Origin: Bilabrum cf. latius
Taxonomy: Eukaryota
Direction: 5' to 3'
Length of the DNA stretch: 64,000 nucleotides
NCBI GenBank assembly: GCA_965178125.1
Contig: OZ237771.1
Location: 496,001 to 560,000 of the forward strand
Positions 12,656-42,253 of the stretch are shown here, in pieces. The translations under genes were made by a program, and so were the position numbers. The notes under the pieces were generated by a model. It made no database searches. It saw only the letters and a program-made list of their open reading frames with translations, and had not been told where the DNA came from. Position 1 is the stretch's first letter; each line of letters starts with the position of its first letter.

Positions 12656-13984
12656 TCAGATGTCCCCCTTCTCCTCGGTGCTCTTGCTCTTGTCCTCCCC
12701 CTCCTCCTCCGCCGCCACCACGTCAAGCAAGTGAGCCACCTCCGCCTCGCTCAGCACGCGCTGCATCACGGACCGGGGCGCAGACGAAGCGCCGATCACC
12801 TCATCCGCCGGGGGCGCCTTCCTGCTCCCCGCCCCCTCCTCATCGTCCTCCTTCCCCTCCCCGCTTCCCGCCTCATCCCCCTCCCCGTCCTCCATGGCGG
12901 CGGCCCCAGAACCGGAGGCAGCCGCGGCTGCTGCCCCGCCTGCCGCCGCCCCACTCGCCTCGGGCACAGCCGCCACGGGCCCGCCCACCTGCCCCTCATC
13001 CCTGCTCGCGTCCTCCTTGGTCCTCAGCACCGCCACATCCAGCCGATCCGCAGTGGGCCTCGCCGTGTCCAGGGCCTTCCGGAGCACCTTGACGGCGAGC
13101 TTGAGGGCCTCCTGGGTGCTCATGCCCTCCTTGTACTCTGCCTTGAGCATGCCGGTGGCAGTCACCTGGTTCTGCCCGATGGCGGTGGCCATCCACCCTC
13201 CGTAGTTCCCGCTCGGGTCAGAGAGGTAGAGCTGATAGCCCCTGTAGGCGTCCCAGCCGGCGTACAAGAAGGACACGCCGAACGGACGGAGGCCTCCGGA
13301 CTGCGTGTAGAACTGTTTCTGGTCACAAAGCAGCCGAACGAGCTGCTCCACGGGGACGGCTTCCCCGAATTTCTTGCGGTGGCGCTACGCCACGAGCCGG
13401 GCCTGCTCCAGCAGGATGCTGGCGTCGGACGTCAGCCCAGCCACGCAGCAGCCGACGTGGGAATCTATCTTCACTAGCTTCTCGCTGCTCTTTGGGGGGG
13501 CCAACAACTTGCTAACGACCTTCTTTTCTCCAGCAATGACAACTCCGTCGCGAGCGAGCACTCCGACAGCCGGTGGGGCGTTCTGGATGGCAGCCACCGC
13601 GTACTCAACTTGCATCAACCGCCCATCAGGGGTGAACGTTGTTGTTCTTTGATCGTAACGCCTAGACTGCGAACAATAGAAGGCCATACAAAGCGCAGAG
13701 CTAGTGAGATCGCTTGAAACCAGTTTGAGTGGCTTGTCCGGAATGCTTGGGAATGGCAAATCGACCAGGACCCGCTGAGGCCACCTGGATAGGTGAAACA
13801 GCTCAGCATTAGCTGCAACCAACCCTGCAGCGCCGCAACACCACGTCTCGAAACCAAGAGGCCAAGCGTAGTCCAAGCAAGCCGAGCAAGGGGCGTGGCA
13901 ACTCCAAGTATCAACAAACCCGCATCTACGCCACAAAAACGCGACACTGCTGGTGGTAATAACTATGTTATCTCAGCTCACCAT
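12656..13984 (-). CDS. PSMA4: 20S proteasome subunit alpha-3 (alpha type-4)
   Basis: ATG-only first exon (13984-13982), intron GTGAG...GCAG 13981-13667, then SRRYDQRTTTFTPDGRLMQVEYA, YTQSGGLRPFGVSFLYAGWD and SDPSGNYGGW. In-frame TAG at 13385-13387 in ARLVA*R, where the family has AQR. Ends in TGA. Confidence 0.95.
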
Positions 13985-14065
13985 AGCAAAAGCTCAAGAA
14001 GGGCTTATCTCGAAGAAATATGGGCGAAACACTGGCCTTGCTACGGAGCTAATTCTGATTTTCTC

Positions 14066-17000
14066 GGGGGGGATCTGATATTTTGTGGACTCAACTCAAA
14101 AGCGCACGCTATCACGAAGAAACATCTGGAACGAGGGCCCGGGACCTACCAGACTTCACGCTTCAGCTGCAATGGCCTAAACCACCTAAGCTCCACCCTG
14201 GGGACCCATTTCCCCATGGAGAGCGTCAGCATTCACGTTCCCTCCGGCGCCCGCTGCCGGCACCCCGTCCTGCTGCCCGTTCTGAGCCAACCCTGCCTTG
14301 ACGTTGGCGATCGCCACGGCGAGGTTGTTGTTTTCGGCTGCCCCTACAGCCAGGCTGGCAAAGTCCTCTCGGATCGCCCTTGCGAGCGCCCGTTTGGCCT
14401 TCGCTGCAGCCCTCCTCGATCCCTTCGAGACAAAATCGAGGATCCTTGAGTGGTCCTGCATGACCCGTGAGTACATAGTGTGGTACACACGCTGTTCCCC
14501 GCGCACGTGCTGGTGCTAGGCGGCAACAGAGAGGCGAGCCTTTGCCACGGAAGACCACGAGAGGCGCGCGTTGGCCGGACGAGTCGGAACCCGCCGCCCT
14601 TTGTCCTCCTGCCTCTTCTTCCGCAGCTTATCGAGCACCTACAGGAACTCGACCGACTTCTCCCCGATCCCCCCCAACACGTCCACCACAAAGGGTACGA
14701 CCCGCACGCCACTGCGTACCGCCCCTTTCTGCGTCCTCACGGTCCCAGGACACCACTTGTCTTCTCCTCCGATCCGGACGCCGAGCGCTCCGAGGTCGAC
14801 GGGCCTGCCGTAGCTGGCCAGCTTCGTGGCATGCGCGGCCCGCAGAGCAGACCCCTCTTGCCAGTCGCTGCCAATCCTCCACGACGAGCGGTCCCACCGG
14901 TAAGTTGCCGCAGTGGAATCAACCACCGTGACATCGATGAGATAAGCCGTCCCCTCGTGCTCAAAGAATAGGTCGCCTCGTGGCACGAGCGGACCGCGCC
15001 GACCCGGCAGCCGGGCCACTTGGCCCTCTGGCTCCCGGATAGGGCGTCTGCCCGTGGCCTCGCGGACCACCTGCTCGAGCACGTTGAGCACCCGGAAGTG
15101 CCTGCGGCCTGGAAGGCCTCCGCAGACACGCTTGTCCTTGCACGTGGCACCGTGGCGAACTGACTAGATCAGTTCGACTACCTTGCCCTGCTTCCGGCAC
15201 CCCGGGCAGATCTGCGTGACGCGCCACGCCTCCCCACATGCACCGTGCGTTGCCCCAAGAGGTTGTGGGGGACAGCTGCACGGCTGTGGGATGGCGAGGC
15301 GCTGGCAGAACATGCCCCGGGCATCTTCAGGCTGGACTCGGCTCAGGACAGAGAGCGGCGCATGCAGCCAAGACCCGGCTCCTTGGGACCTGGCGGCGCG
15401 GATTGTGGCTCGCGCCACTCCTGCGTACTCTCTGGTGACTGCATCGACTGGAGCGAGTCTGTCGTGCGCAAGCGGAGATGAGGCATCCCAGAGGAGCCTC
15501 TCCACCTGCACTCGCTCAGCCAGTGCCGTCACATGGCTCTGGTTGTGCCCTCCTGCGGCACCTTCGAGAAAACGAATAACCGCCTGCGATGCGGTGGGTG
15601 CCGGCTGCTCCCCAGCCAGCTGCCTCGTCACCCATGCCCGAAGGTCCTTCACCTCCAGGCGCCAGGGTTCAGTGGCCCCACCGCACAGCTCCATACGGGC
15701 TGCCTTCTCGGCTGGGCTGCCCAGGAGTTCCGAAGTGCGGGCTGTGTCCCACACCATACCATAGCGTGGGGGGACGTCAGCCTCCGGAACAAGTGGAAGC
15801 AACGGACTCGGGAAACCAGCCATCCCGAAATTGTCTTGCTTCCCCTCTTGTACGAGTCTCCCGTACTTCGAGATTGCGGTCATCACAGTGTCCACAAGGG
15901 AGTTCAGGCGCGCGGTGCGCCCTCGCAGTGGGTTCAGCAGAGGGGGTGCCTCCCCGGCACCTGCCGCCGCACCTTCCCCGACCTCCTCCGCCGGGTCCCA
16001 CTGGTTGAGCGCCACCTGCAGGTGTGGCAGGTTGAAGTCGCGTGCTACCCTCGCCAACCAGGGCCACACATCCAACAACCCCCCGACGCACATTGCCTCC
16101 CGGGTTAAATCGGCAGGCACGAGCCCCACTCCGAGGCCCCCACGGGCAACGGATAGCGGACCCAGCACGTCCAACACCTGTCTCTGGGCCTGCGAGAGAG
16201 CGCTTACACGCATCCCTGTCAGGAACTCCAGAAACGCTCCCTACACCTCCTTCAAATGGGGTGTCACCCCGTCCTTGAGCTCGGGCAAGAGGCACCCGCT
16301 CCTGTGCACGTGCGTCCACGCCGGCACAACGCACCGGGCAAACAGTGCGCGCGCACTGATTGGGTCCAGGTAGGCCAGGCGAAAAGCCTGAACCACCGTC
16401 TCTTCCAAGCGTCCCTTCAAGACTTGTTCGGCCACTCCGACGTCGGTCCCTACCGGGACGCCCAGGATCCTCAGCCCATGCTCGTGGACCACTCCTTCGA
16501 GCCTATCCTCCTGGTCTGGCGCCAATAGGTGGACCAGGCGCTAATAGGTGGCTCGGGAGGGGGAGAAGAACGACGTTTTCTTCTAGTTGAGGGAGAGGCC
16601 GACGTCCCCCAACTTCCCCTCCAACGTGGCGATGGCTGCCCTGACATTATCTAGCTCCCCCAACAGGAACACGTCGTCAAGGTACGCTACTAGGTACACA
16701 TCCATGTGGGCAATCTTTGTCGCTTTCAGAGCGCCCTAAATGGCTGCGCAGAACAGCGCTGGAGACAATGGCGACCCCTACAGCACCCCCTCCAGGTTCT
16801 GCACAAGCTCTGTTCCATCCTCGCCAGACACAACACCATGTACTGCGTGCTGCAGACACTGGTGCACGTAAGTGCCCAGTCCGGTGGACAGCGACGCCAA
16901 AGCTTGCAAGGTCGCCTTCCGATGGATGGAGCCATATGCATCCGAGGCATCCAGCGCAGCGACCACCCACTCAGGGTTAGCGCTGAGAAGAGCCTGGATC

Positions 17001-18548
17001 GTTGCAATGGCTCCGTCCATCCCGCACTTGAGCCCCGCCCCCATCTGGTGTGGGGCGCAAGCTCGCTACACCTTCGGCAGCAATTCGGGCCGAAGGGCTC
17101 GGCTCACAAATGTATGCCACTGAGGCTGGATTGCGATGACCCTGAACTCCGAGCCCCCCTCCCCTTTCGGGATTGGGACCCCTCGAAACAGGCCCAGGCA
17201 CGCGAATAGGCACGGCGGCAGGGCTCCCTCAACCATGGACTAGCAGAAGGCATGGAAGTCGTCATAAAGCCGCTTCACATCTGCTCCCTCCCCGGTCAGC
17301 AAGGTTTTCAGCACCTCTCTCGTCACACCAAAAGCATCTGGCGCCTTGAGTCGCAGGGCCTTCTAGACCTCCTCCCCTAGTCTAGCCCCCGACAGCTCCA
17401 CCACATGCTCGCGCGCGTCTCCTCCAGTTCCCCCTCGTCGGCCTCTTCGCACCGGGCGTGTCCAGCGGAACCTGGGGATCGGCTGGGACCGCTTGGTGCG
17501 AAACTTCCCCTACACCTTCGCCTGCATTTCGGCTGCCGTGCCCCTAGCGTGGGGCCTAGCAGCCAACCGCGACATGGCCTTACGGTAGTCCCCGATCGAC
17601 AAAAACCGGAGGCAACTGCGTACTGCCTTGCGCGAAGGGGGGGAAGGAAGTCCCTTGCCACTGACGCTGGAAAGGATACCCCCCAACTTCTCCACAATCC
17701 TCCCGCGGGCTGCGAGAGACTCGGGATCATCAGATGGGGAGCTCCCACTCTTTCGGTCTACCACGGCTCCGCCAGCTATGGCTTCCTACTCAGCGGCAGC
17801 TTCGCGCGGGACACGAGAATCCGACGGCCGGCGACACAGCAAAACAAACACTTTCAGCTTATGTAAAGCCTACAGCGTGAGCTTCTCCTCCAGTTCTTTG
17901 CCTTTACCAGAATCGTTGGTCCAGGCGGAGGATACATTCATAGTCTCCTTCAGGAAGAGAGAAAGGGCGGTTCGTGCCTCCTTTTTCTAATCTAGATTCA
18001 TACTACGAAGCGCTGTCTCGCGTTCGGGCCAGAACGCACACTCAAGGATCAGCTTGCGAACGTCGTCGGGCAGTGGCACTGCCTCCAACTCAGCCGCCTA
18101 ATGCTCCGCAGGAACCCCCGCTCCGGCCCCGCCGGCAACTTGTGGGACCGCATGTGGAACATTTGCTTCACCCTGATCTGCATCTTCTTCAGCTGCGGCG
18201 ACTGCGGCATTATCTGCCCCCGGCGCCGCCTCAGCAACCACGATTGCTGCACCTCCGACCGCCGCCTCACCCACAGGCTAGGGAGGCTAAGCGTGACCGA
18301 AGTGCTAGCGTCCAATGACTCCGTCGGAATCAGAATCATTGGAATCGGGGGGGTTGGGGACTCCTGGTCCGGTCTAAGCGGCGCTGGCAGCACCGTCAGA
18401 ATCCTTGGCAAGTAACCTTCCCAAGGCGAATCTTTGCGCGACTCCCACACCCATTCTGGGCATCTTACCCTTACCGGCAACACGCCCTGAACGTAGGACG
18501 ATCTGACCCCCCCCGGGGTCATCCATTTCCCAAGGAGATTTTGTCTTG
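14066..18548 (-). mobile_element. CRE-like non-LTR retrotransposon (single ORF, RT plus C-terminal restriction-like endonuclease)
   Basis: Contains a single RT-RLE ORF. Flanked by a 10-bp direct repeat TGATTTTCTC (14056-14065 and 18549-18558), taken as a candidate target-site duplication, so the boundaries are tentative. Confidence 0.75.
14156..18526 (-). CDS. Reverse transcriptase / zinc knuckle / RLE endonuclease polyprotein (~1,456 aa with TAG=Gln)
   Basis: One frame from ATG 18526 to TGA 14156 with about 22 in-frame TAGs and no TAA or TGA found. RT motifs: PKGEGGSEFRVIAI, PHQMGAG, LDASDAYGSIHR, GVL*GSPLSPALF, AYLDD, GLSLN*KKT. A Cys/His cluster follows, then RLE motifs RH...E...RGDL...IDVTV...KLASY...PFVVDVLGG. 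Confidence 0.92.
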
Positions 18549-18650
18549 TGATTTTCTCAATGTCAATGTGTAGCGTGTATATTTGCGTTGCACTTGCACT
18601 CGTATATAACTCGACGGGATCCTTCGCACTGTGGGCTCGCAAGAGCAAGC

Positions 18651-21600
18651 ATGCAGTGGCGCAGATGCGAATTTTTTGATACATTCAATATAAAAGATCA
18701 TGATGGCGAGGCTGAGCTGCAGCCGCCTCACGCGGGCATATCAGTGAGGCCCGAACTTTTTTGTGCAATGAGTAGCATTTCGTACGGAATCACGGGATGG
18801 ATTACACTGCGAACGAAACGCTGCGACATCACTCACCATCTGTGCAGGTTCTTGACGTGACGTGTTCGCACAGTGCCGGAAGTACGCTCGCACTAGGGTG
18901 CGCAGACGGCACGGTTGCAGTCATCGCGCCGGACGGAACCATGGCTCGATTCCTCGCGCACGAGCACCGCGTCAACCAGGTGTGCCTGGTCGATCCCGCG
19001 GCGTGCTACTCCTCGGATGGCATCGCCGGCGGTTCCTCGAACGATGACGGGCTGCTCCTCGTCACGGTGGGCGATGCACCTGACGGCAGGCCGGCCCACG
19101 TGCGGGAGGCGCAGCGAGCCGTGGCGAGGTACTCGGAATCGCAATTGCGGCAGCAGTTGCATGCTGCGCAGCAGGAGGAGCAGCGGGCGCACGAGGCAGC
19201 GAACCTGCCGGTGCCCGGGAGCGGCGGTGTGGGGTCCTCTGTGGGTGGAGGGTCCGGGTCTGTGACGAGTGGTGGGGGTGGGACGGGGGGTGTCCCAGGG
19301 GATGGTGAGGGGGGTAGGGGATCCGTTGGGGGCGGGCTAGGCTCCTCTAGTCTTCAGAAGATGTTTGGGCTGGGGCTCGGGGGCGGCGGGGCGGGGCAAG
19401 GGTCGGGCGGCGGCAGCGGCGGTGCGGGGGGCTCCAGGGTGGGGCCCAGGGGTCGTCGGGGGACCACCCAGGGGAGGGAACAACCCCGTGGTGGGGACCA
19501 AGGGTCTGGCCTGGGGTTCTTGTCCATGGTTTCACGAACGTTTGGCAGCGGAGATGCGGGCCCTGGGTCGAGAGCGGGGGCAGGGGGGTCGGGCGGTGTC
19601 CAGGACGGATGGAGGCAGGCTGAGAGGGGGTGGGCCTGGGCCCCGGGGGAGGGGCCTAAGGCCGGCGGAGGGGACAAGGAGAGGGAGGGGGCCACAGGAC
19701 GCGCATCGGCGTCTGCCCGGGGAGGCAGTTCCGGCTCCGAGTCAGATCCCTGCCCCCCCGTGCTTCAGGTGTGGTGCCTGGGGGAGTGGGGCGGGCTGCA
19801 GGCGGCTCTGCGGCAGGCGCGGGAGGAAGCGGCGCAGGCGGAGGCGGACGCCGCTGGGGAACAAGAGGACGAGGAGGCGCGGGCGAGGGAGGCGGGAGGA
19901 GGGGGTGCCCTAGGGCTGGATGACGAGGACGAGATGGACGAGTTCGGGCGCAGGGGGGGGGAGGACCCCGATGCGGACGGGTCCACCCCCGAGGAGAGGG
20001 AGGAGCAGAGGGGGAGGCGGGCGCTGGAGAGGGCGGCGAGGGGGACCTTCAGGAGGGCGAGCAGGTTCCGCAGGGCGCTGGAGATTTGCGCGGCGCCTCC
20101 CTCGGCTGCCTCCTTCAAGTATCCGTTGACTTTGCCCGGGGACTCGCTGCGGGCGGGCAGGGCAGCTTCCCCCGTGCCTGGCGTGTACGTGACAGCACTG
20201 GCTGCTTGTCCCCCCGAGCCCATGGACGTGCAGGCGGGGCACGGTGGGGGTGGGGGGGCATTCGGGCTGCTGCTGGGCACGGGCATGGGCGGGGGCGGCG
20301 CTTCCACGGTCCCTGGGCTAGGCATCCCGACCGGCATGGGCCTTTGCGTTGGCATCGGCCTATCCACAGGCCACGTGGTGGTGATGGACGGTCCCCTGAA
20401 CAACGGGAGGTCCAGGCTCAGATCAAGGGTGTTCGCGGCGCCCCGGCCACCGCTCCCTGCGGAACTTCAGAGCGCGGCGCCGTCCGCATCCGCGGCGGCA
20501 GGCGGTGCATCGACCTCCCTGACCGCCTCCCGAGGCGCGGCTCCCCCGGTCCCCCCCAAGGGACAGGGACAGGGACAGGGGGGCTCCTCCTCGGGGGCGG
20601 GGCAACGGGAGGGGCAGGAGAGCCCGGCCTGGCAGAGGGCTCTGCTCGCGGGGGGTGCGGGCTGCAGGGCCGCAGTGACGTCAGTGGTGCTGGCCAACTT
20701 GGTGGGGGCGGGGGACGGCGGGGCAGGGGCAGACGAGGGACCCGCGGGGGAGGCTTCCGGCTCCGGATCGTTGCTGGTCGGGTTTGCGACCACCCGCGAC
20801 ACCGTGTGTTCCTTCTTCCCCTCGCTGGGCCCCGACCGCGCCCGCTGGCCCCCTGAGGTGCAGGAGGCCAGGGGCAGGCCAGAGGCAAGAGAGGTGCCCA
20901 CCATGGGACTCACGGACCACAGGGACGGCCCATGGCAGGGGTGTGCGCCGGGGTGCGGGGTGCTGACGGGGGACGGGCGTCTGGCCGCCGTGGGGCATCG
21001 TGCAGTGCACCTGTACTGGCCCTGGTCCCGCGGGGAGGTCTTTGTGGTGGTGAGCTCCAGGGCGCCCTGCCTGCGAGCCGCGTGGGTGGGGGCCTCGGGG
21101 GGGCTCGCACTCGTCACAGCCGACTCGGACGGGAGGCAGACGGTGCAGGTGTACGACCTGCGGAACCGGCTGCAGAGCGGGGCGCTGCGCATGCCCCTGG
21201 TGCCCGCCTCCTCGGCCCAGGCGCACACCAACGCCGTGTGGACGGCGGCCAAGCAGGAGGCGGCGCGGGAGGGTGCACTGCACGCTGCTGCTCTGCGCAG
21301 GGAACAAGGGGGTGCGGACGGGGGACAGGAGGAGGACGGTCGCAGGGGCGGCGGCAGGAAGGGGGGCGCAGGTGTGATGAGTGCGCTGGAGCTGGCAGAG
21401 GTGTTCAAGGCGGCAGGGGCCGTGGAGTCGGGCGCCAGTGCCGGTGTGATGAGTGCGCTGGATGGATCCGCGGGCGGTGGTTCCCGTGCCGCGGCCCGCA
21501 CAGCGGCTCCCCCCTCCCACCTTGTGCTGCACCTGTCGTGCGCCCGGGGGGACCGGCTGGTGGCGCTCACGACGAGGGGGGTGGCGGTGGCGCTGCAGGA

Positions 21601-24600
21601 GCGGCCCATCCGGACCAAGATCAACACTCTCTTCGAGACGCGGCAGTTTCTCCCCGCCATCCGCCTGGCCGAGCGAGAGCCTGACGTCGATGACGCTCAC
21701 GTGGCGCACATGCGGGCCATATACGCCCAGTGGCTGCTGGACTCTCGCCAGCTGGACGACGCAGTGGAGCAGTTCTCCAGGACCATAGGGCACTACGATC
21801 CATCGGCAGTGGTCAGGAGGTTCCTGGGGGCCCGCAGGACACAGTACCTCATCCGGTACCTGGAGGAGCTGCACGAGGCCGGCGCCGCGCGTGCGGAACA
21901 CACCAGCCTGCTGCTCAACTGCTACGCGCAGGCCAGGCAGGCCCCCGCCCTGGCTGCATTCTTGCTGGGCAAAGGCGCGGGGGGAGAGCAGCACAAGCAC
22001 CAGCATCTTACTCCGGATCCTCAGGGGACAAGCGGTGGTCAAACCGACGCAGACCCCGCTGCTGCGCTCCCCTTCGACGCCCGGCAGGCGGTGGGCACCC
22101 TCCGGGAGGCCGGCTTCCTGGCCTTCGCGAGGGACGTGGCGGCGCTGGCGGGGGACTCGGAGTCGTATCTCGAGGTGCAGGTGGGCGCGCGGGCGGCTCC
22201 CGACGAGGCCATCGTGTTCCTCAGGAGGCTCCCCGCGGAAGACGCCAGGCGGGCCCTGGCCGTGCACGGGCCCGCGCTGCTGGCCCAGCGGCCTGGGGCG
22301 GCGGCGGCGCTGGCGGCGAGTCTGAGCGGGGGCTCGTATGTTCCGCTGGGGGCGCCGCGCATTCCCCCACCCGGAGGCGTGGCTCCAGCACTGTGGGCAG
22401 TGTCGGAGGGTGCGTCGGGGGAGGAGGCGGGGCTGTCGGGGGCTGGGCTAGAAGAGGGCGATGGGGCTTCAGGGGCAGGGGCAGGGGCTGGGGCTGGGGC
22501 AGGGGCTGGGGCTGGGGCTGGGGCTGGGGCTGGGGCAGGGGCAGGGGCTGGTGCGATGACGGGAGCGGCCCGGCGGTCGACAGAGCTAGAGCTGCGCGCA
22601 GCAGCAATGGCGGGGCACAGGGCCCGGGTGGCGATGGAGGGGAGCTAGCACGGGGATGCATCGCACGGTGGTGCATAGGGGGGCGAGGGCACGCTGGTGT
22701 CCCGGGCTGCGGTGGCGCCGCACCTCTCTGGGTTTGCAGCACATCCCCGGGAGCTGCTGGTGCTGCTGCGGGAGGTGCTGCTGGGCGAGAAGCAGGAGGT
22801 GCTGGCCCGGCAGCTGCAGGCGCTGGAAGAGCATGTGGGCGAGTGCCAGGCACCGCCGGGGGGTACCGGTTCGGTGGGTGCCGGTGCGTAGGGGCGTGGC
22901 GGGCCCCCGGCTGCCTGGGCGGCGCTGCTTGAGCTGGAGCTGGAGGGGTTCCGCAGGAGGGAGGTGGCGCTGCTTGAGGGTGTGACGAGTGAATCGGGGG
23001 GGCTGGGGAGTGGTGGTGCGTCGGAGAGCAAGGAGTCGGGTGGTAATCAAACCGGGGGACGTGGCCAAACTCGCGGGGTGCTGCGGGACGACCCCCGTCT
23101 GCAGAGGGCCCTCGCGGCTCTGCACAGAGAGCGGTCGGATCGGATCAGTCTGCTGCTGGCGAGGGCGGGCGCCGACGTGCCGGACGCATCGCTCTCTTTG
23201 TTGACTCGCGGGATGCGGCGATACCTTCGTGTGGAGGGGGAGGGGGAGGGGGAGGGGGAGGGGGAGGGGGACGAAGGGGAGGTAGGGGGGATGGAAGGGG
23301 AGGGCGCTGCCAGTGGTGCGGGGACAGATGCATTGCATGGTAGTGCAGTAGCCACAGCGCGGAGCGGGGCCCTAGACGCGCGAGTGACGTACTCGCTGGC
23401 TCCCCAGCGAGTCATGGCGGCAGCGCATGCCCTGGGGGCAGAGGACGTGGGGGCACATGCGGCTGCCACCAGCGGCCTTCCGGAAGCAGAGCTGGAGTTG
23501 CACCTGGCCCGGGCGCGGCAGGCTGCATTCCTTGGTCGGGGCCAGCAGGCCAAGAGGTGTCGCGAGCAGGCTCTCAAGGTGTGTGAGGCGCATGTGGCCA
23601 CCAGGCCCAGGCTATATGAAAGGGCGCTGCAGTCGCTGGCATACTCGCTGGGCAAGGAGGCGAGTGTCATAGGTGGGGCGAGTGGAAGCAGTGGAGGCAA
23701 CGGGACTCCTTCTGCCACTGCCGCTGGTGCCTCGGCTGGTGCTGGGGTCGGTGGCATTACGGGAGGGAGGCCGGCGACAGCGGAGGAGAGGGCGAGGGAG
23801 CGGCGCTTCAGGGAACACGAGCTGGACCTGGCACGGTGCGTGGGCAAAGTGGCGGATCTAGGGCTGCTGTCCCCCGTGCAGCTGGCAGAGCTGCTTGGTC
23901 GCAACCCCGTGGTTCCTCTCGGCACGATCAAGGGAGTGCTCGTGGCGCGGCTCCGGGAGGACCAGGCGGTGGCCGCTGCAGGACGAGAGGCGGCGCGGCG
24001 GGCGCAGGAAGAGGCAGAGGCGGCGCGAGAGCAGCTGGAGCGGCTGCGCTCCCGCGGTCGGGTGTTCGAGCGTCGAGTGGACCGCAGCACGCGACACCCG
24101 CTAGGGCCCGTATCTGTGCACTTTTTGTGCGGCGGGCACGGGCTGGCGCAGGGGCTGGGGAGGAGAGAGGGGGGCAGCGGGGGCGGGGCGGGCGCCAGGA
24201 ACGGGCGTGGCCGGGGTGGAGCGGGTGGGTTCGGGGTGGATGACGAGGACGAAGACGAGCATGCGTTCGCGCCTACCTCGGTGCAGTCGGCTCTGGATGC
24301 CGATGCAGGTGCCTAGCTTGCGAATGCCGGTGCGCTTGGGTACGAGGGCAAGGGTCGCGGGCTGGAGTGCCCAATCTGCGGCGACGAGCAGCTGCAGGCG
24401 CTGAGGGAACAGGCAGACGGGCAGCGAGCGGCGCTGCTGCCGGGCCGTTTCTAGGCGTCTCTCAAGCGAGCACGGGGAGTGGAGGGGCTCGCTGTGATGG
24501 CGGACGAGCTGGGGCTGGGCGTGATGGACGACCGGGTGCTGCGGGAGGAGAAGGAGGCATGGGACAGGGAGCAGGCGAGCAAGGCCGAAGCCGAAGAGGG

Positions 24601-24736
24601 GTAGGGCAAGGATGCTGAAAGTGATGCCGGAGGGGGGAGTGGAGCGGCACTGGGTGGCAGTGGCACTGCCGTGCCTGGGCGCGAGCTTGGGTTTGACCCA
24701 AGTGATGATCCATCTAGAGCCGCATTGTTTGGCTAA
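18651..24736 (+). CDS. VPS11: Vacuolar protein sorting 11 (HOPS/CORVET core subunit), expanded by low-complexity inserts
   Basis: Exon 1 MQWRRCEFFD (18651-18743), intron 18744-18847. Clathrin-repeat region LQERPIRTKINTLF...AVEQFSRTIGHYDPSAVVRRFL...YLEELH...HTSLLLNCY; C-terminal VHFLC...ECPIC. In-frame TAGs at 22646, 22889, 24314, 24452 and 24602. Ends in TAA. Confidence 0.9.
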
Positions 24737-24760
24737 ATATGTTTTGTCCTGGTTGGAGTT

Positions 24761-28004: not shown

Positions 28005-28012
28005 CACACTTG

Positions 28013-28042
28013 CTACACGACAAGATCTGTGGGGTCACGGAT
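28013..28042. repeat. Right terminal inverted repeat
   Basis: CTACACGACAAGATCTGTGGGGTCACGGAT, the reverse complement of 24761-24790. Confidence 0.95.
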
Positions 28043-28229: not shown

Positions 28230-31200
28230 TCACAGCTGCGGCTCCGTCGGCAGAGTCACCCGCACGTCGCTCCCCACCACGAGCTTCTCCTCGCCCCTCT
28301 CCTCCCCCACCGCCTGCAGAGCGAGGCCGTGCTCGTTGGCCAGGTGCAGCAGGGACAGAAAGAAGAAGTGCACGCCCACCTGTCCCCCCACCCGAGGCTC
28401 CAGCGCCTCCATGGCCCCGTGCAGAGACACTTCCTGCCCCTCCTGCCCCGCCTTGACCTTGGCCACGTGCTGCGTCCCCATCACGCTGTCACTCGACTGC
28501 GCCTCCAGGTCCCCACCCGCCCCCAGCTCGGAGCCAACGTGACCCCACACCTCCTCCTTCAGCCGCCGCACGTCCACCCGCTTCGCTCGGCGGGCATACC
28601 CCACCTTGACGTCAGCCACGTCACGGTCGGGAGCCAGCAGAGCCGCCCCACCCACCGTGAGACCGTTGCCGGCTTCGTCACCGCCAAAAGCAGCCCCGCC
28701 GAAACCAACGCCACCGCCGCTCCCCGCGGCTCCGAAGCCTGCGCCCACGTCGTCCTCGAATCCGCCCCCGATCCCGCCCATGTCGGCATCCCCAAAGCCC
28801 CCGCCGAACCCACCGTCATCATCCTCCTCCCCACCACCACCACCGCCTCCAAAGGAAGCCGCAGCGGCACGCGGCACCACTGCAACGAGACCACCGAACG
28901 CACGGGCCCCCGCCCCCACACCCCCTGAGGGACCCCCGCCCGCGAGGACAGCCCAGTGCGCCAGCGGCCACACCCGCACCACGGGCCGCAGGGCCAGCCG
29001 CCACAGCCGGGCCGCCGCCGCCCGCGCCGCATGTGCCGCCGCCCCACCAGACATCCACTCGGCCCCCATGCCAGCGTCGCCTCCCCCATCTAAATCCGCG
29101 CCGTCCCCCGCACCCCCTCCCGCCGCGATCAGCACCGGCGCAGGGGGCAGGCAGTGGGCACTGGGGCCCAGCTCCAGGGCGCGGCGGAGGGACGGGCCAG
29201 ACAGCTAAGTTCCGCTAGCGCGCGGCGCCAGAGCAAGCCGTGGGTCGTCCGCAGCGGGCGCTTCCTCTGAGAAATCCAAGTAGAACTTCTCCCGGGTTCG
29301 AGACCCGGTGCTGCTCTTTTTCTCCTAGCCCATCGCACCGTCCCCTGCCCCCGCGCCTGCCTGGGTCCCCTTGCCTTTGCCCCTGCCTCTGCCTCGCATC
29401 CTCCACTGCGCCGCCCCCCCAGCTGCCCACCCCTGCAGCGACGCCACCGCCGCCAGCCTGGCAGGATCCAGGTATCCATACTCGCCGGCGCTCACCATCT
29501 GCTGCCCCTGCTGCTGCTGCCCCTGTTGCCCCACTGCCTGTCCTGAGGGGCCGCCCATCGAGGTTGCAGCCGCAAAGTCCGCACCCCCTCCCGCCGGCAT
29601 GGCAGCTGCGTCGAATGCCGCCTGCAGCTTGAGCCCCATCGCACCGCCCACCCCCGACCCCGCCCCTGATCCCATACCATCGCCCCCACCCTCCTCCCCA
29701 TCGATGCCACCTTGACTTCCAGCGCCTGAAGCACCTGTTCCCTCCTCATCGAAGCCCACATCGTCCTCGAATCCGCCCCCGATCCCGCCCATGTCGGCAT
29801 CCCCGAAGCCCCCGCCGAACCCACCGTCATCATCGTCCTCCCCACCACCACTCCCGCCTCCAAAGGACACCGCTGCCACGCCCTCCGTCGGCCCAGCCCC
29901 GGCCCTAGCCCCGCTCCCCGGCGCCTGCAACCCCCCGTCAGCCCCGGCCCCCGGCCCCACCCTCGGCATGCGAGACCTGCTTCGCCTCGAGGTGCGGGCC
30001 GTGAGAGCCCCGGTGAGGGCACCCTTGCGGCGGCCAGTGGTGGGGCGGTTCGGGGCCACACCGGCGATGACCCCATGCTGGGGGGTGGTCGCGGAGGGGG
30101 TCCCGGGGACACCCCCCCCAATCCCCGCCCCTCCTGTCCCAGCCGCAGCTGAAACTGGAGGGGCGGGGGCCTCGATGGAGGCTGAGAGCGAGTCCAGCAC
30201 ACCACCACCACCGCCGCCACCCATCCCCATCCCCATGTCGTCGTCCTCGAAGCCGTCGTACCCGAATTCGTCCTCATCACACCCAAAGCAGCCGCCGCCA
30301 CTACCGCCATCTTCCTCTGCACCATCTGCCTTGTCCTAAGCGCCGTCTTGGCCCGATGGCCCCCCAGCACCAGCCCCACCCCCCTCGCCCTTGTCCCCTT
30401 TCCCAGGCCCCTCCAGCCCCAGCGCGAACTGCACCCCCTGCTCCCTGTCCTCCTCGCCGAACACGCCGCCCTCACCGGCATCTGCACCACCGTGCGATGC
30501 ACCACCCTTCCCCCTCCCGGCCCCAGCGGCAGCCCTTGCTCCACCCCCGGCGCCGATCCCAGCTCCGTCCAGCGCGTCGTCACGCGCGCACAGCCGCCTT
30601 AGCGACCCCCCCGCCCGCCGCAGATCCACGTACAAAGCCCCGATCCCGGGGGCGACCTTTAGGCTCCGGATGGCCGCCTCGGCCCCCTCGGCCGTGAGAT
30701 CGTCGTCGTCCCCTGCACCGACGTGCACTGCACCTCCCTGGGCAGAGTCACACAGCTCCTCGGTCTCGGCGTCTGCTTGCGCGGCGCCGGCTGCGGAACC
30801 CTCTCTCGCAGCCCGCAAGATCTCCTTCACGGCGTCGTCCACGGGCACGGGGGCGCCCCACGCCTCCGTCATCGCACTCGTCACGCGGGCAGCCCCCTCC
30901 CCCTGGGCGTCGAAGGCTGGGGCGCCCCCCTCGCTGGCCCTCAGCTGCGCCGCCAGCAGCCCCCTGGCCCCTCCCTCGTCGAAACTCCTCGCCATGCGGT
31001 GGAACTGGGGGCCCACCGCGGCCTCCAGGTCCAGCGCATCGGCTGTGATGGCTCGCGCCTGTGCCAGCGTCGAGGCCCCGCCCCTTCGGACCCGGAGCCT
31101 GCGCCTGCGGGCGGCCTCCCTGTCCCCCTCCTCCTCCTCGTCCCCGCTGTCCCCTGCCCCTCCCCCCGGCTGCATGCTCTTGCCCGCCCTGGCCCTGGCG

Positions 31201-32069
31201 AGTGCCTCCAGCACCCTGAACGAGGAGGACCAGGTGTCGTCCACCCGGTGAGAGTAGATCTGCACTGAGGCGTCCAGCGTGCACGAGGCCCGCTGGAAAT
31301 CAGTCCCCAGGATGCTGCTCGCCTGGGCCCCCGCGGCGCCGCCGATGCCCACCGTGGGCTATGTCTGGTCACTGATCGCCTGACCTTGGCCGCCACTGGG
31401 TGTCTGATTCTTCTGCGGCTCGTCCCCGGCCCCCCCGATGATGGAGTCCATGTGGTCGATGAGCGGCAGGCTCCACGTGTTCTTCGCGTTGATTTTCTGC
31501 GGGTGCAACACGGCAAGTCTTTACATATGAAGACAGTGCAGATGATTAGCGCGTAGTAAACGTCGCGATAGAGGACATGAGGCGACGGCAACACAGAGGA
31601 TGCAGGCAGGTGCTGGTTGCGAGAGTTGCACGGCTCCCAGGGCCCTCACATTTTCTGTGGACAGCTTGAGAACGCGAGAATACATGTCTTGCAGCTCAGC
31701 TGAATTTACAGCAGGCGCTGCGCTGTTCGCACCACCCATGGAGGCCCGAAGCTTCCTGCGCGGGCTGCTGCCTGGGACGCGCTTGCCAGACTGTCTCCGA
31801 GCCGGACTTCTGGATGCCGCGGCAGCCTGGTCCGCTGCCTCCAGGAGTGACCGTTTCGTAGCTCCAAGCAGACTCTTTCGCTTGCGAGATCCGCCCAGAC
31901 CCCCTCCGATTAGGCTAGATTCACGGCGGTTGCCTTTGGTGACCGGAGCCGGACTCAGAGCCATCGAGCCGTCGTCAAAGTCGCTATCTGAATCATCCGC
32001 ACTTGCAAGCAGAGGGCCTCGTTTAGAAATTGCAAGACTTTTGCGTCCTTTACCGCCCCGGGACGGCAT
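28230..32069 (-). CDS. NCAPH: Condensin I kleisin subunit (CAP-H / Barren / Brn1)
   Basis: MYSRVLKLSTEN|KINAKNTWSLPLIDHM (intron 31649-31497), DFQRASCTLDASVQIYSHRVDD, FDEGGARGLL, and C-terminal YARRAKRVDVRRLK...FLSLLHLANEHGL. In-frame TAGs at 31359, 30336, 29325 and 29205. Ends in TGA. Confidence 0.93.
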
Positions 32070-32374: not shown

Positions 32375-34805
32375 ATGGCTGTTCCAGGGCTAGATATGGA
32401 CGATGGCGTCGGTGGCTTGCCACCTGGCCTGGATGGAGGCGCAGGTGGCGGCATCCCTGGCCTGGATGCTGGGGGCCAGCAAACAGGTGCCGTGGATGAG
32501 GGCTACGGGCGCATCGAAGGCGCGCCTGCATCCAATGGATCCGCTCCTATGTATTCTTCCTCATCGTCGTCCGGCGGCATCCCGGGCCTGGCTCCCCCAG
32601 GAGGCGAGCATCCGCACGATTCTCAGCAGAGCGCCATGGACCAGCTTGCCGCCATGGGCTTCGGGGGGGCAGCGGCTGCCTCGGGGGCAGACGATGGCGG
32701 CGTGCAGGTGGAACTGGGCGGACGCTCCATGACGGCGCGCAGGTACGCCCAGCAGGCACAGGCGCGGCAGGCCGCTGCCCAGCAGCAGGCAATGGACCAG
32801 GCCGCGGCAGGGGACGCCGGAGCGGCTGCCATGCTGGCGCAGGCACAGGGGGGCGCCGCGCATTACGGTTCCGCACAGGGTGCTCTCATGGGCCGCGGGC
32901 TGATGATGGGCGGCCCGGGGCAGCCTGGTGGGCCTGGCGCCGCCATGGGCGGGATGATGATGATGGGGGCGGGGGTGGGGGCCTACGGTGCGGGGGGCGG
33001 GTTTCTGCGCGCTGGGCCGGGGGAGGTGCCCGACGAACGTTCGGTGGATCTGCAGGCCGCCGCGACGGAGATGCCGAACGCCGCGGGGCCCTACCGCCGG
33101 CCCCGGGACGGCCAGTGGGTGACGAGGGGCGGATTGCTGCTGCAGAAGGGGGCTGTGCTGCCCGCCCCCAGCAGAGGGAGCGCCTTTGACGCCTATGCAG
33201 AGCCCAGGGACGTGGCGGGTCAGGCCCCCTGGAGACCGGTGGGTGCCCCTGAGGGTGGTCGGGGTCAGGCCCCCGGCTCGTTCTTCAACTACGGGATGGA
33301 GGAGGACACGTGGAGGTACTACGCCGCCTAGCAGAGGAGGGTCCGCGGGGAGCTCGAGGAGGCGGTGGAGGCGAGGAGGAGGCTGGCCCTGGGGCAGGCC
33401 CCTCAGAGGAGGAGGGCGGCAGCCCGCGGGGTGGAGGCCGCCATGCGTTGGTGGGCCGAGGAGGCTGGGCACGAGGGGGCGAGGGGGGCTCTGGAGGAGG
33501 CGGAGATGGGGCTGCCGGTGCTGCCCCCGAGGCTGCAGGGGTGGACGGAGCCGCCCCCTGACCCCAAAATGGGGGAAGGACATGCCAAGGGTGTGGGGTC
33601 GGGCGTGGGCGCGGGTCAGGGTCCCATGGAGGGGGGTGGCTCGACCCCGACCCCGACCCCAGCGCCTGTGCCTGTGCCGGCGAGCGGGCTTGTGGCCGAG
33701 ATGCTGGCGGTGGCACGGGGGGAGGAGGTGCCGGGTGGGCGGGGGAGGGGGAGGGGGAGGGGGCGAGGGCAGGGAAGGGGCAGGGATCGGTGGCAGGAGG
33801 ATGAGTTTGGTGGCAGGGGCAGGGGCAGGGGGGGCGGTAGGGGGCGGAGAGGGGGTGGGCTCGTGGTGGAGATCGGAGGGGGGGTTGGGGGGGGAGATGG
33901 GGCGGAGAGGGAGGGGGGGGCAGGGGGAGTGGGGGGGCAGAGCAATTCACCTGCAACGTACGGGGGCAGGGGCGCTCCAGATGGTTCCCCGCGGACATAT
34001 GGGGGCACGGAGGCTCCCGGGGCGGGGTCAAGCACGTACGGGGGGGGCGATGCGCCACCCCGCTCGTGGAGCAGGAATGATTCCGAGTCCACGCCGCGTG
34101 CGGGTTAGCCCCGAGGGGCAAATAGGGGTCCGGCTGTCCGTCACTCGCGGTCCCCTAGCGAGGGGGGTGGGGGACCCCCGGGTGGGGGCAGGGACTGGGA
34201 TAGGGGACCAACTTCTAGGAACGAGCGGTCGCGGGACGGGGGCCGGGGGGCGAGCCGGGATCGTGCGGAGAGGGGGGAGCGCTGGGAGGAGCGGCGGGGC
34301 CCGAGCCGGGATCGTGCGGAGAGGGGGGAGCGCTGGGAGGAGCGGCGGGGCCCGAGCCGGGATCGTGCGGAGAGGGGGGAGCGCTGGGAGGAGCGGCGGG
34401 GCCCGAGCCGGGATCGTGCGGAGAGGGGGGAGCGCTGGGAGGAGCGGCAGGGCCCAAGCCGGGATCGTGCGGAGAGGGGGGAGCGCTTGGAGGAGCGGCG
34501 GGGCCCGAGCCGGGATCGTGCGGAGAGGGGGGAGCGCTGGGAGGAGCGGCGGGGCCCGAGCCGGGATCGTGCGGAGAGGGGGGAGCGCTGGGAGGAGCGG
34601 CGGGGAGATGTGGGGGCGGGTCGCGACCGTTCGGCTGGTAGGCGAGGCGGGGGAGGGGGCGAGGGGCGGTCTCGTGGCGGGGGGTTGCGGGTGGAGATGG
34701 ACGACGATGATAGGCCGCGGCGGGGGGGGGGTGGGGGTGGGGGTGAGAGGCATGGGGGAGGGCGGTCGAGGGGGGGGGGGGCGCCGCAAACGGAGGCGGA
34801 GGTGA
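32375..34805 (+). CDS. FIP1: Pre-mRNA 3'-end processing factor FIP1-like protein with Arg/Asp/Glu-rich tail
   Basis: Fip1 motif PWR...SFFNYGMEEDTWRYYAA*QRR, with TAG at 33329 and a second TAG at 34106, then an RD/RE-rich repeat tail. The end is either TGA 34803-34805 (needs an indel in the G-run near 34770-34781) or TGA at 34955-34957 in the literal frame. Confidence 0.8.
34251..34604 (+). repeat. 51-bp coding minisatellite, about 7 copies
   Basis: Units start at 34251, 34302, 34353 and so on, and encode SRDRAERGERWEERRGP in the FIP1 frame. Confidence 0.95.
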
Positions 34806-35315
34806 TATTGGCAACAGTTGGATATTGGCGACGGTTGGATACCGCAGTCTGGTTTCGTCCGGCATTTTGTTCCAACCAATGGGACGCGAACGAACGAACA
34901 AGCCGAGCACGCGCACCCCGATTTCCGAGCCATCATCACACCCAGATCATCAGATGATCATCCCTTTGGCCATGCCCACCCAGACGGTGAAAACAAAAGA
35001 AACTCCCTCCAGATTCAAGGAAATTAAAAGAACGGTTGAGAATTTCGGATCAGAGCTGAAGCTTCGGCAGCCACAGCAATGCAGCGGCTTCGTTGGCTCC
35101 ATCAAATCCAGTTGAAGGCGAAGACACAGGGAGTATGTGAAAGGGCAGTGTTCCTCTCTGTGCGAGCATTGGTGCAAGCCCACCATGCTCCACTAGCATC
35201 GTCTCGTCATCTCGCAAGTTTGCAGTTGCGACGCTGTGTTACTCCGACTCGGAGTGCCAGATCGATTGCCTATCAAGCACGAGTCTACATTCATAAATCA
35301 TTTTGCACGAGTAGT

Positions 35316-36228
35316 ATGGCCGCCGTGAGAACATAGATGGCTGTCATTGTCTTCTTTCATAAAATATGCAGCTTTTATCTATTATCCGAGTTGACTTTAA
35401 GTGCGTTGTGACTACCTCGCGCAGGCAGGTAGCGATGTTACAGCACTGGAAGCAATGTACAGCTCGGATGTTGCCACTGAATACAACAAGATGATGTCCA
35501 AAGGGAAAGAATGGGAAGACATCAAAGCGGCAGCTGCTCAGATGACCAAGCACGCCCCAAAGGAAGGAGTGTTTGTCGATACAAGCACTGGGACGGGACA
35601 GCTGCTGCAGGCTCTGAGAGCATTGGACAAGACGCGTGTGCTGATCGGCGCGGACATCTCAGCAGATATGCTGAGAGCAGCCAAGTCGAACTGCTCCACA
35701 GCGTTTACGATTCAAGGCGACATGCGAGCGCTCAGTCTGGCCGAGATCCGCTCAGCTGCTTCGGACGAGGAGGCGCGAGTGGCCGGGATCGTATCGATGT
35801 TTGCGCTGCATCACGTGTCAGAAGCAGAGGCAAAATCGTGCATTATCAGCTGGGGCGGCATGCTGGCGGAGGGAGGTGTGCTGCTGCTGGGTCTATGGGA
35901 GGGCGAGGGGCAGATGTCCAGCTGGGAGGAGGAAGGCGGGACGGAGGCTCTAAAGGGGGCGGGCCAAGACGGGGATGCGGGAAACAGCGAGCACACAGGG
36001 CCTAAGGTGGATGGAGATGACAGGGCAGCGAGCAGTGGTGCATCAGGATCAGGTGCAGGCGACGGGTCATCCGAAGCGGCACCCGCACAGCCACCCATGT
36101 TCAAGTGGCCCGAGGCATCCGTCCGCGCTTGGGTGGCGGAGGCCGGACTGGAGGTCGTGGAGGCGAAGCAGAAGGACGACGAGTTCGGCAACACGTTGAA
36201 GCTGGTAGCACGGAAGCCAATTGTATAA
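35316..36228 (+). CDS. Class I SAM-dependent methyltransferase
   Basis: Probable exon 1 MAA (35316-35324) and intron 35325-35424. Motif I VFVDTSTGTG, then LIGADISADML, QGDMRAL, FALHH and LAEGGVLLL. Ends in TAA. Confidence 0.85.
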
Positions 36229-36410
36229 AAGTTTGGGCCAATTGGGCGGGGGATCCGATACTTTGTGAAATTAGCTTGGGCCAGTTTTTGCGATTGTACC
36301 GTGTTAAAATTGGTTTCTTCTCACCCCGCCCGTTTGAAACCAAGTAGCCAGCCTACACCAAGCATCTTTGTGTGTTGCCACGAGTTCTTGGCTGACGAGA
36401 TTGTCAAGTC

Positions 36411-40031: not shown

Positions 40032-40243
40032 GGTGGCGGCATTTGAGAGCTGGGCGGCGGCATGCGGTGTGTAACGGGACGCAATGTAGTTTGGCTGTTG
40101 CAATTATTACAGTTGAACATAAGTTTGCAGTCAGTTTGCGTGTGTGTGTTACTCGTCACATGGATCCCTCGATCGCGGCGATCCAAAACACGTGCATGCG
40201 ACCAGCAGAGCGCAATACAAGGTCACATCAAGGAAAATACTTC

Positions 40244-42253
40244 ATGAGGGCTGTTTCCAACCAATGTTCACGCAGATTAGGAACACAATCGGGCCGGAGA
40301 CTACGCTCTAGATTGCAGACTTTGGTCCAAGTTCCACGTCACCATAGAATACTTGCCGCTAAGTCATTCATGTCAGCATTAATGCAGCCGCGCAAGCAGG
40401 TCTATCTACAACGAATCGTAGTGTCCATGTCTCAGTCCGGGGTTTCCCTATATTTCTTTCTTGATTCGCAGCAGGCGTGAGGCAGGAGCAGCTGCAAGGC
40501 AAGGTGCGAGCACACGAGAAGCACTCGATGCTGAGGTTCCACCACCGAGCAGTCCAGTGTATGATGCGGATGCAGAGATGTGGCCGAGAACCTAGAAGCT
40601 TGCTGACGGGCTTTTGTCGGGGAACCGTTCGAGCTTGTCGAAGGCAATCACTTTGAGTGAGGCAAGCGAAAACCGCTCCAAAGCACATGAGAGTGAATGA
40701 GCCTATGAATCAAAGGACATATATTGTTTATATGTACGCATCCCATTTCATGAGCTGCCTTCGCAGTCGAAAGCAGCAGACCGGATCACAGGCGGCAGGC
40801 AGAGCTGCTGCTAGACGCCGTGCTCGCTCGCAGACGGGAGGGCGGGCACGGGGCGGGGGTGCAATCGGACCAGCGAACGTTCGTGGGATCCTCGATGGTC
40901 CCTGATCCGCTGCTAGACCCGGCTCTGTACCCGCCTCCTCCTCGAGCCCCCGCCTCGCTGCCCACGCTTCGAGTGGGCGTGGCCGGGCCCCCTGGTGCGG
41001 GCAAGAGCACGCTCATCGAGGCCCTTGGGATGTTCCTGGTGGCCTCTGGGCACAAGGTGGCGGTGCTGGCGGTGGATCCCTCTAGTTCCATGACGGGGGG
41101 CAGCATCCTGGGGGACAAGACGAGGATGGCAGAGCTGAGCAGACACCCGCGGGCCTTCGTGCGGCCCTCCCCCACGAGGGGGGCACTGGGGGGGGTGGCC
41201 GAGCACACGAACGATGTGGTGCTGCTGTGCGAGGGGGCGGGGCACGACGTGGTGCTGGTGGAGACCGTGGGGGTGGGCTAGTCGGAGGTGGCGGTGGATG
41301 GCGCGGTGGATTGCACGGTGCTGGTGCTGCCCCCAGGGGGGGGGGACGAGCTGCAGGGGGTCAAGAAGGGGATCATGGAGGTGGCGGACATTTGCGTGGT
41401 CAACAAGGCGGACGGAGATTTGGCCAGACCGGCGCGGCATGCGGCGGCCGAGGTGCGCCGTGCCCTGCAGCTGGTGCGCTGGAAGCACGGGATGGCCTGG
41501 CAGCCCCCGGTGCAGCGCGCCTCGGCTGCGGAGTGCAGGGGCATCCGGGGGTTGTGGCAGACCGTGCTGCGGCTGAGGGGGCAGTGCGAGGAGGGTTGCA
41601 GGGGGGCAGCGGCGGAGGGTGTGTGGCAGGAGTGGGAGGAGGGACAAAGGGAGTGGGCAAAGGGGATGCTGCAAGGAGCGAGGGAGGCGTGGGAGGAGAG
41701 GCAGGCAGCGGAACAGGGGCAAGGCCGTGGGAAGAGCTCCGCGGCATGGCTTGAGTCCAGGTGGAGGACCCACGGGGAGCTCATGAAAGTTCTCTAGAAG
41801 GATTTACCCCTCGGTGGGGAGGGCGAGGGCGAGGTCGATGGACAGGAGGGTGGGGGCGGGGGCGAGAAGCATCGGGGAGAGTCTGCTGCTAGGGACGAAA
41901 TCGAGGAGGAGAGGAAGAGGCATTTGACGAGGAGGCTGCAGGACCCCCATGCAAATTGGGAGTCGGAGGGTGGGCGCGGGGGGCCGGTGAAGGGGCTGCT
42001 TTCACAGCGGCGCGCACAGCAGGGGCTCCACTGGATGTGGGCGCAGGCCGAGGCTCAGCTGGTGGGGCTGCTGCGGGGGTGCGAGGGAGCGCGTGGGCGT
42101 GCCACCGAGCTGGCGGAGGGAGTGGGGGCGGGCCGCATGGCACCGCGGAGGGCGGGTCACGAAGTGGTGCGGGCTTTCTTGTGGCAGGAAGCATAGGAGG
42201 AGGACAGGGAGATGCAGACGCGTGCCCGTGGGGGGGGAGGTGGGAGGAGATGA
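40244..42253 (+). CDS. MMAA: Methylmalonic aciduria type A / MeaB-ArgK family GTPase (mitochondrial)
   Basis: [23 protein letters not shown] (intron about 40657-40767), [46 protein letters not shown] (TAG 41279-41281), [18 protein letters not shown] and VNKADG. Further TAGs at 41795 and 42194; ends in TGA 42251-42253. The start at 40244 (Arg/Ser-rich presequence-like) is tentative. Confidence 0.92.

Follow-up and report, generated by a model that had tools for sequence, protein, structure and literature searches.

The window analysed here is a 64-kb stretch of genomic DNA (positions 496,001 to 560,000 of contig OZ237771.1, GenBank assembly GCA_965178125.1, entered as Bilabrum cf. latius), taken as a whole, in which the codon TAG lies in frame inside many protein-coding sequences and is very probably read as glutamine (Gln). 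It was examined together with 3.3 kb of a metagenome contig from a related species. The GC content of the window ranges from 54 to 72% per 4-kb bin. When TAG is read through, long frames appear which match eukaryotic housekeeping families in Pfam, and the same window carries two protein kinases, a repeated retroelement and a DNA transposon (Table 1). The table 15 translation of PSMA4 (proteasome alpha type-4) is an unbroken protein whose best match in PDB is a proteasome alpha-type subunit chain (2.2e-82), and the MeaB frame finds human MMAA as its best PDB match (2.2e-73). The N and C ends of condensin subunit 2 (Cnd2/NCAPH) match Brn1 in PDB, in matches which do not extend to the Cnd2 TAGs, and VPS11 has no match in PDB.

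Table 1. Annotated features of the window, with their in-frame TAG codons and stop codons (ORF, open reading frame; aa, amino acid position)
Feature	Positions	Strand	In-frame TAG	Stop	Pfam match and remarks
Protein kinase frame (kinase 1)	8563..12237	+	14, including TAGTAG at 8824-8829	TAA	Pkinase 2.2e-10
PSMA4, open frame with TAG as sense	12656-13972	-			Pfam match
PSMA4 exon 2	12656..13666	-	1	TGA at 12656-12658	Proteasome 4.7e-50; 336 codons plus stop
PSMA4 intron	13667..13981	-			GT..AG; adjoins start codon at 13982-13984
Reverse transcriptase ORF of repeated retroelement	14156..18556	-	22	TGA	RVT_1 3.7e-15; 1466 codons
VPS11	18651..24736	+	6 exonic	TAA	TPR_PEP5_VPS11 3.9e-22; exon 1 18651-18743, intron 18744-18847, exon 2 to the TAA; open frame with TAG as sense 18716-24736
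DNA transposon ORF	25089..28034	-	11	TAA	981 codons; flanked by terminal inverted repeats
Condensin subunit 2 (Cnd2/NCAPH), main frame	28230..31520	-	4	TGA	Cnd2 3.5e-50
Fip1 frame	32351-34957	+		TGA	Fip1 match at aa 306-332; TAG 33329..33331 is aa 327
Methyltransferase frame	35401..36228	+	0	TAA	Methyltransf_25 1.4e-08
MeaB/MMAA GTPase frame	40754..42253	+	3 (41279, 41795, 42194)	TGA	MeaB 9.7e-87
PNO1, last exon	57366..57971	-	0	TAA at 57366-57368	KH_PNO1_2nd 2.2e-35, matched to its last position
Mrr_cat-domain frame	62168..63277	+	3	TAA	Mrr_cat 3.2e-05 at aa 31-125, one TAG inside (aa 93)

All counts refer to a set of 17 frames accepted as genes or element ORFs, with 17,275 codons in total; the frames 6437-7495 and 55993-57078 (-) were left out, as neither has homology and the second is antisense to other open frames. 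The set holds 104 in-frame TAG codons, which is about 6.0 per 1000 codons or one per 166 codons, and TAG makes up about 13% of the Gln codons of the window. In the two off-frames of the same sequences TAG reaches 6.3, TAA 2.7 and TGA 16.2 per 1000, and the near equality of the in-frame and off-frame values for TAG means that it is not avoided in coding sequence. The frames end in TGA (11) or TAA (6) and never in TAG, the last of these following from the way in which the frames were built. The sequence-only reading of this DNA had counted 13 ends in TGA, 6 in TAA and none in TAG; the figure for TAA is the same among the accepted frames, and that for TGA falls to 11. It had also spoken of dozens of TAGs in single frames, which is too many, since the maximum is 22 in the reverse transcriptase and cellular genes carry between 0 and 14. 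The TAGTAG at 8824-8829 was placed rightly in the first kinase.

In PSMA4, MeaB, the reverse transcriptase, Fip1, Pkinase and Mrr_cat individual TAGs fall within the segments matched in Pfam or PDB, and no in-frame TGA was found inside a domain match in the 17 frames. The kinase PDB matches stop short of the TAG at aa 448. TAG had been described as falling within core motifs of Fip1, VPS11, NCAPH and the transposase, and this is confirmed for Fip1 only, where the TAG at 33329 is within the Pfam match. The first TAG of VPS11 that had been taken as in frame (18773) is intronic and is spliced out, the other VPS11 TAGs and all those of Cnd2 are outside the segments matched in Pfam or PDB, and the transposon ORF matches no Pfam family with TAG rendered either as X or as Q. 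Frame length was considered as an argument for TAG as sense and was rejected as non-specific, because reading TGA as sense lengthens frames equally in GC-rich DNA; the argument therefore rests on homology.

Residue read at TAG

The three TAG codons on which the sequence-only reading had mainly relied are present and in frame. The CTA at 13385-13387 is a minus-strand TAG in PSMA4, where Gln is found in 111 of 120 homologues, that of Cafeteria among them, and in all three PDB alignments listed. The TAG at 41279-41281 in MeaB occupies the Gln of the GVGQSE motif, a position held by Gln in every one of 120 homologues and again in three of three PDB alignments. The third, CTA at 16778-16780, stands directly before GSPLSP in the reverse transcriptase, and all 150 aligned homologue domains have Gln at this place. 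At two further TAG sites of the reverse transcriptase Gln is the commonest residue (63/150 and 7/50). A small Codetta-like score, in which log-odds were summed over the 9 TAG columns of the window with at least 50 aligned residues each, gave +14.3 nats for Gln and -10.3 for the runner-up, His, and the same procedure recovered the standard meaning of 12 out of 12 control codons. A Codetta-type check had been suggested for the assembly; over these columns of the window it favours Gln.

A scan of metagenomes with PSMA4 yielded a contig of 3313 bases (L001) on which PSMA4 and VPS11 are again arranged head to head, but the 4.4-kb retroelement that separates them in the window is missing. Both introns and the exon layout of the two genes are kept. 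The two PSMA4 sequences share 95% identity in protein and 81% in DNA, and of the 224 codons compared 118 differ; 108 of these differences are synonymous, which indicates that PSMA4 is under purifying selection. Seven in-frame TAG codons are found on the contig, and they face TAG once, CAG four times and CTG once in the window, with one in a stretch that could not be aligned. Three of them belong to PSMA4, where one sits at the very codon that is TAG in the window (13385) and two face CAG. In VPS11 a TAG-TAG pair faces CTG-CAG, another TAG faces CAG and the remaining one is in the unaligned stretch. The in-frame TAGs are therefore common to two related species and belong to a lineage and not to one assembly. 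Considering exchanges at TAG between copies or orthologues as a whole, 9 of 14 are with Gln or CAG.

Sequencing runs were also searched for the window. Four of them (X1 to X4) contain all sampled words of the window, and X5 to X7, which come from two other studies, contain 62-87%. Contigs of X1, X5, X6 and X7 were aligned to positions 8500-28499; the transposon region 25175-28499, with little or no cover in X5 to X7, was not used as evidence, and depth was not taken as a measure of copy number or expression. Some joints in the low-complexity part of VPS11 have sides of only 20-21 letters and were set aside as repeat artefacts. A joint 13666/13982 with GT..AG on the gene strand is present in PSMA4 contigs of X5, X6 and X7 and absent in X1; the intron borders read ATG|GTGAGC...CGCAG|TCT and the spliced protein begins with MSRRYD. 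In VPS11 a GT..AG joint 18743/18848 is present in contigs of X5 and X6 and is likewise absent in X1, and the TAG at 18773 lies within the intron so removed. As such joints occur in X5 to X7 and none in the DNA-like X1, the contigs of the former appear to derive from spliced RNA. The X5 contig with the PSMA4 joint runs over 12887-13666 with 0 differences, and those of X6 and X7 do likewise, so the PSMA4 TAG is carried in the spliced transcript. It is unchanged in four runs (X1, X5, X6 and X7) from three studies. Editing or splicing at the TAGs had been named as something to exclude, and for PSMA4 the codon is found unedited and retained in the spliced contigs of X5, X6 and X7. In kinase 1 a single X5 contig spans 8584-12368 with 0 differences.

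The runs X1 to X7 bear three different organism labels and match the window with 0 differences in long pieces, so that a run label may not name the carrier of this DNA.

The proposal that UAG encodes Gln while UAA and UGA remain stops agrees with the conserved columns, the spliced contigs, the exchange of TAG with CAG and a TAA at a conserved C-terminus. We consider it highly probable that UAG is an ordinary Gln sense codon, with UAA and UGA as stops, in the nuclear DNA of a Cafeteria-like stramenopile. This code is NCBI table 15.

Termination and alternative readings

Several observations weigh against this assignment, and they are set out here beside the alternatives on which they bear. The absence of in-frame TAA and TGA from the 17,275 codons is built into the set, since TAA and TGA were used to delimit the frames. 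The same does not apply to the length of the frames, which remain open over 1000-2000 codons in some cases despite an off-frame frequency of TAA plus TGA of about 1.9% per codon.

The alternative that survives best, though we judge it unlikely, is a dual UAG, which would mean Gln within genes but termination close to the 3' end in some transcripts. Context-dependent stops are known from some ciliates and from Blastocrithidia, there with UAA. A TAG is found within the last 20 codons in 3 of the 17 frames, being 4 codons before the TAA in kinase 1, 8 and 11 codons before the TGA in the reverse transcriptase, and 18 codons before the TGA in MeaB, where it lies near the end point of the Cafeteria protein; UAG could accordingly serve as a stop in some genes. 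However, late TAGs in about 2 of 17 frames are expected by chance, and every frame with a C-terminus that can be checked ends in TAA or TGA, as seen for PNO1 and for PSMA4 in both species. The PSMA4 genes of the window and of the related contig end at TGA in the same aligned place, and their low-complexity tail is conserved up to that codon. The eleven TGA ends and this aligned TGA indicate that UGA still terminates.

It is very improbable that both UAA and UAG are sense codons, as in codes of the table 6 type, and that UAA is merely rare owing to the high GC content. TAA is indeed the rarest stop triplet over the whole window (186, against 422 TAG and 675 TGA), and in two instances a TAA parts a pair of open stretches in the same frame, once in Cnd2 and once upstream of kinase 2, the latter in a flanking stretch without homology. 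Codons ending in A make up 17-22% of the two-fold pairs, and if TAA stood to TAG as CAA does to CAG, the 104 in-frame TAG should be accompanied by about 25 in-frame TAA, whereas none was found. In PNO1 the TAA coincides with the alignment column at which 113 of 119 homologues terminate, and the last residues of the predicted protein and of yeast Pno1 are aligned with each other. Reading on past four of the TAA ends (kinase 1, VPS11, the transposon ORF and the Mrr frame) meets another stop within 6-39 codons, and the GC content drops beyond the TAA where the read-on is long enough to be measured (VPS11 and the transposon). The TAA in Cnd2 sits in a putative in-frame intron of 153 nt (31497-31649) with GTGAGG..GCAG borders, whose removal joins two conserved pieces. 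On a sample of six TAA ends, UAA still terminates.

A reading of UAG as another residue (Glu, Lys, Leu or Tyr), or an ambiguous one, is less probable still. Some TAG sites do face such residues in relatives. In four of the seven TAG columns of the reverse transcriptase domain the commonest residue is another one (Asn, Ala, Pro and Ala), the TAG of the Fip1 motif faces Lys in both of two human FIP1 chains, one VPS11 TAG of the related contig stands opposite CTG, as given above, and in a reverse transcriptase fragment with 73% identity (P0310) two TAG sites are occupied by Lys and Glu. Against this stand the three invariant or near-invariant Gln columns, a log-odds for Gln about 25 nats ahead of the next residue and the predominance of Gln or CAG in the exchanges. 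At the 38 variant positions of the reverse transcriptase frame, CAG and TAG replace each other three times and AAG replaces TAG once, and no TAA or TGA arises. Opposite TAG sites of the window, the paralogous fragment P0242 carries Gln twice and Glu once.

That the TAGs are untranslated, as assembly errors, lesions of pseudogenes, edited codons or parts of introns, can be set aside as scarcely credible: the TAG at 18773 is truly intronic, that at 41795 lies in a stretch of about 150 residues which MeaB homologues are without, X1 contigs show a single inserted G at three places of VPS11 at a depth of about 4, and the RNA nature of X5 to X7 is deduced from splice joints, the records bearing no RNA label and X5 being rated probably DNA, but the frames are interrupted by TAG only and never by TAA or TGA, the four runs agree at the PSMA4 site with the spliced contig retaining TAG, and the second species has TAG at the same PSMA4 codon under strong purifying selection, so that for PSMA4 this explanation is already contradicted.

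Organism, related codes and mechanism

UAG as Gln with UAA and UGA as stops is thus the reading preferred, and the identity of its carrier was approached through single-gene quick trees and match lists. Cafeteria roenbergensis is the best or near-best named match for three proteins, with identities of 71% for PSMA4, where it is the best match, 64% for MeaB and 71% for PNO1. In the PSMA4 tree the window sequence is sister to Cafeteria with an SH-aLRT support of 98 and a long-branch warning, and in the MeaB tree it falls in a clade of five rows, Cafeteria included, with a support of 85. For PNO1 the named matches, among the matches listed, are all stramenopiles (Cafeteria, diatoms, Parmales, Ectocarpus and Heterosigma). 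By these comparisons the organism would be a stramenopile flagellate with GC-rich DNA, and among named organisms the bicosoecid Cafeteria would be its closest relative. The earlier impression that the genome is not that of a typical ciliate is borne out by all three proteins, and the placement by PSMA4 and PNO1 which it had proposed leads to stramenopiles near Cafeteria.

UAA and UAG are almost always reassigned together in eukaryotes, and most cases in which the two are split come from ciliates or from organisms known only from transcripts. Lineages which split UAA from UAG serve as natural experiments on discrimination by eRF1 and on the capture of a stop codon by a single tRNA mutation. Reassignment of UAG alone to Gln has been described in Iotanema spirale, in two phyllopharyngean ciliate lineages and in Protocruzia tuzeti, according to the accessible text of PMC11687900. 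UAG alone is read as Leu in the rhizarian exLh and as Ser in Scotinosphaera, with UAA kept as a stop (PMC11687900, PMC5304391, in their accessible parts). The sequence-only reading had rightly listed Iotanema and the phyllopharyngeans; measured against the same accessible text (PMC11687900), its uncultured rhizarian belongs to the Leu cases and not to the Gln ones, and Protocruzia tuzeti (Gln) and Scotinosphaera (Ser) were missing from it.

The closest parallel is Iotanema spirale (Fornicata), in which UAG is also Gln, UAA is a stop, and the same mechanism with tRNA-Gln(CUA) and eRF1 is predicted; it belongs to Metamonada and, as far as the accessible part of PMC5304391 goes, is known from transcripts only, whereas the present case has genomic DNA, introns and a second species to draw on. 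The phyllopharyngean ciliates and Protocruzia tuzeti likewise read UAG alone as Gln (PMC11687900, accessible text), which is the code of table 15; they are ciliates, a group with frequent changes of code, in contrast to the GC-rich stramenopile of this study. In the codes of the table 6 type, found in many ciliates, Ulvophyceae, Hexamita, Streblomastix and Amoeboaphelidium (PMC11687900, in the text available), a stop has likewise become Gln, but UAA is reassigned too, whereas here TAA ends PNO1 at its conserved C-terminus and is absent from the in-frame codons. exLh and Scotinosphaera resemble the present case in that UAG alone is reassigned and UAA is a stop, and differ from it in the residue (Leu or Ser, not Gln). 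crAss-like phages also use code 15 with TAG as Gln (PMC9523058, accessible part), although these are viruses in bacteria, while spliceosomal introns and housekeeping genes of eukaryotes are found in the window. Cafeteria roenbergensis shares with the window a GC-rich genome (about 70%) of bicosoecid type with few checked introns (10.1101/751586, in the part available), and unlike it has full-length annotated proteins with Gln at the PSMA4 and MeaB TAG sites. The available part of the same genome paper (10.1101/751586) names a non-standard code for the mitochondrion only.

A UAG-only reassignment to Gln is thus known elsewhere and is not reported for stramenopiles in the literature searched, where no non-standard nuclear code was found for a bicosoecid or any stramenopile, subscription papers and supplements being outside the search. 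The origin of the code is probably independent of the known table 15 cases. We lean towards the view that this is the first nuclear reassignment of a stop codon in Stramenopiles, an independent UAG-only change to Gln which arose in a GC-rich, free-living and apparently culturable bicosoecid-like lineage of at least two species after the split from Cafeteria.

As for mechanism, the anticodon CUA is the only one that reads UAG without UAA, and one base change in tRNA-Gln(CUG) suffices to produce it (PMC5304391, in the accessible part). By analogy with such cases, a tRNA-Gln with anticodon CUA would read UAG but not UAA here and would have arisen most simply when a copy of tRNA-Gln(CUG) mutated in its anticodon; eRF1 would at the same time have lost or weakened its recognition of UAG and kept that of UAA and UGA. 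The GTS motif of eRF1 in Iotanema is altered by T32G, a change for which loss of UAG recognition has been proposed (PMC5304391, accessible part). ARAGORN returned no tRNA gene in the 64-kb window or in the 3.3-kb related contig, and no Rfam family matched in the window.

A clean comparison would be offered by a GC-rich stramenopile for which genomic DNA and spliced transcripts are available, along with a second species and, in Cafeteria, a close relative using the standard code. If the change is the first in Stramenopiles, the lineage would allow one to ask which tRNA-Gln copy and which eRF1 residues have changed. Annotation, orthology and phylogenomic data sets for the lineage would be wrong unless table 15 is applied.

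Mobile elements and other features

Gene callers working on the standard code cut proteins at TAG, and the public protein collection holds such pieces from this organism. Two of them are retroelement fragments from standard-code calls, P0242 being cut off immediately ahead of a TAG and P0246 spanning from an internal Met to the next TAG; another entry, P0391, is the PNO1 of the window itself, called from an internal Met. The retroelement between PSMA4 and VPS11 is covered for the most part by contigs of the RNA-like runs, and the many variant contigs found on it indicate that several diverged copies exist.

The DNA transposon is bounded by terminal inverted repeats of 31 nt with 90% identity (24987-25017 and 27977-28007), and an outer, perfect inverted pair of 30 nt lies around it (24761-24790 and 28013-28042). 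One X1 contig joins 25022 to 28000, the 2977 skipped bases beginning with TG and ending with CA, a pattern that resembles an unoccupied insertion site in a further copy of the flanking repeat.

No Pfam family was found for the ORFs 1196-6418, 36396-40031, 43285-47757, 48166-54090 and 54278-55831, nor for the stretch upstream of kinase 2. Tandem coding repeats occur in kinase 2 (59900-61100), with TAG pairs every 84 codons in about five units, and in the Fip1 frame (34182-34656), with seven units of 51 nt.

The three introns, namely those of PSMA4 and VPS11 and the putative one of Cnd2, are all near the 5' ends of their genes, begin with GTGAG and end with CAG, and that of PSMA4 adjoins the start codon in the window and in the related contig alike. 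In VPS11 the extra Gs of the X1 contigs, one each at 19952, 20709 and 24168, may be either low-depth contig errors or homopolymer errors of the window; the Pfam VPS11 match is in the frame of the window and lies between the second and the third of these places. The additional residues of MeaB (41600-42050, aa about 283-430), which hold the TAG at 41795, have no counterpart in Cafeteria and the other 119 homologues and may represent an insertion or an unspliced in-frame intron. Finally, a block of about 84 nt with near-identical DNA is present in frame at 28743-28865 and 29754-29876 (-) and at 37233-37330 (+), the first two copies being in condensin subunit 2 and the third in an ORF unrelated to it. 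The block is translated into an acidic peptide rich in Gly and Phe, has no GT..AG borders and could be due to gene conversion or to a small mobile coding insert.

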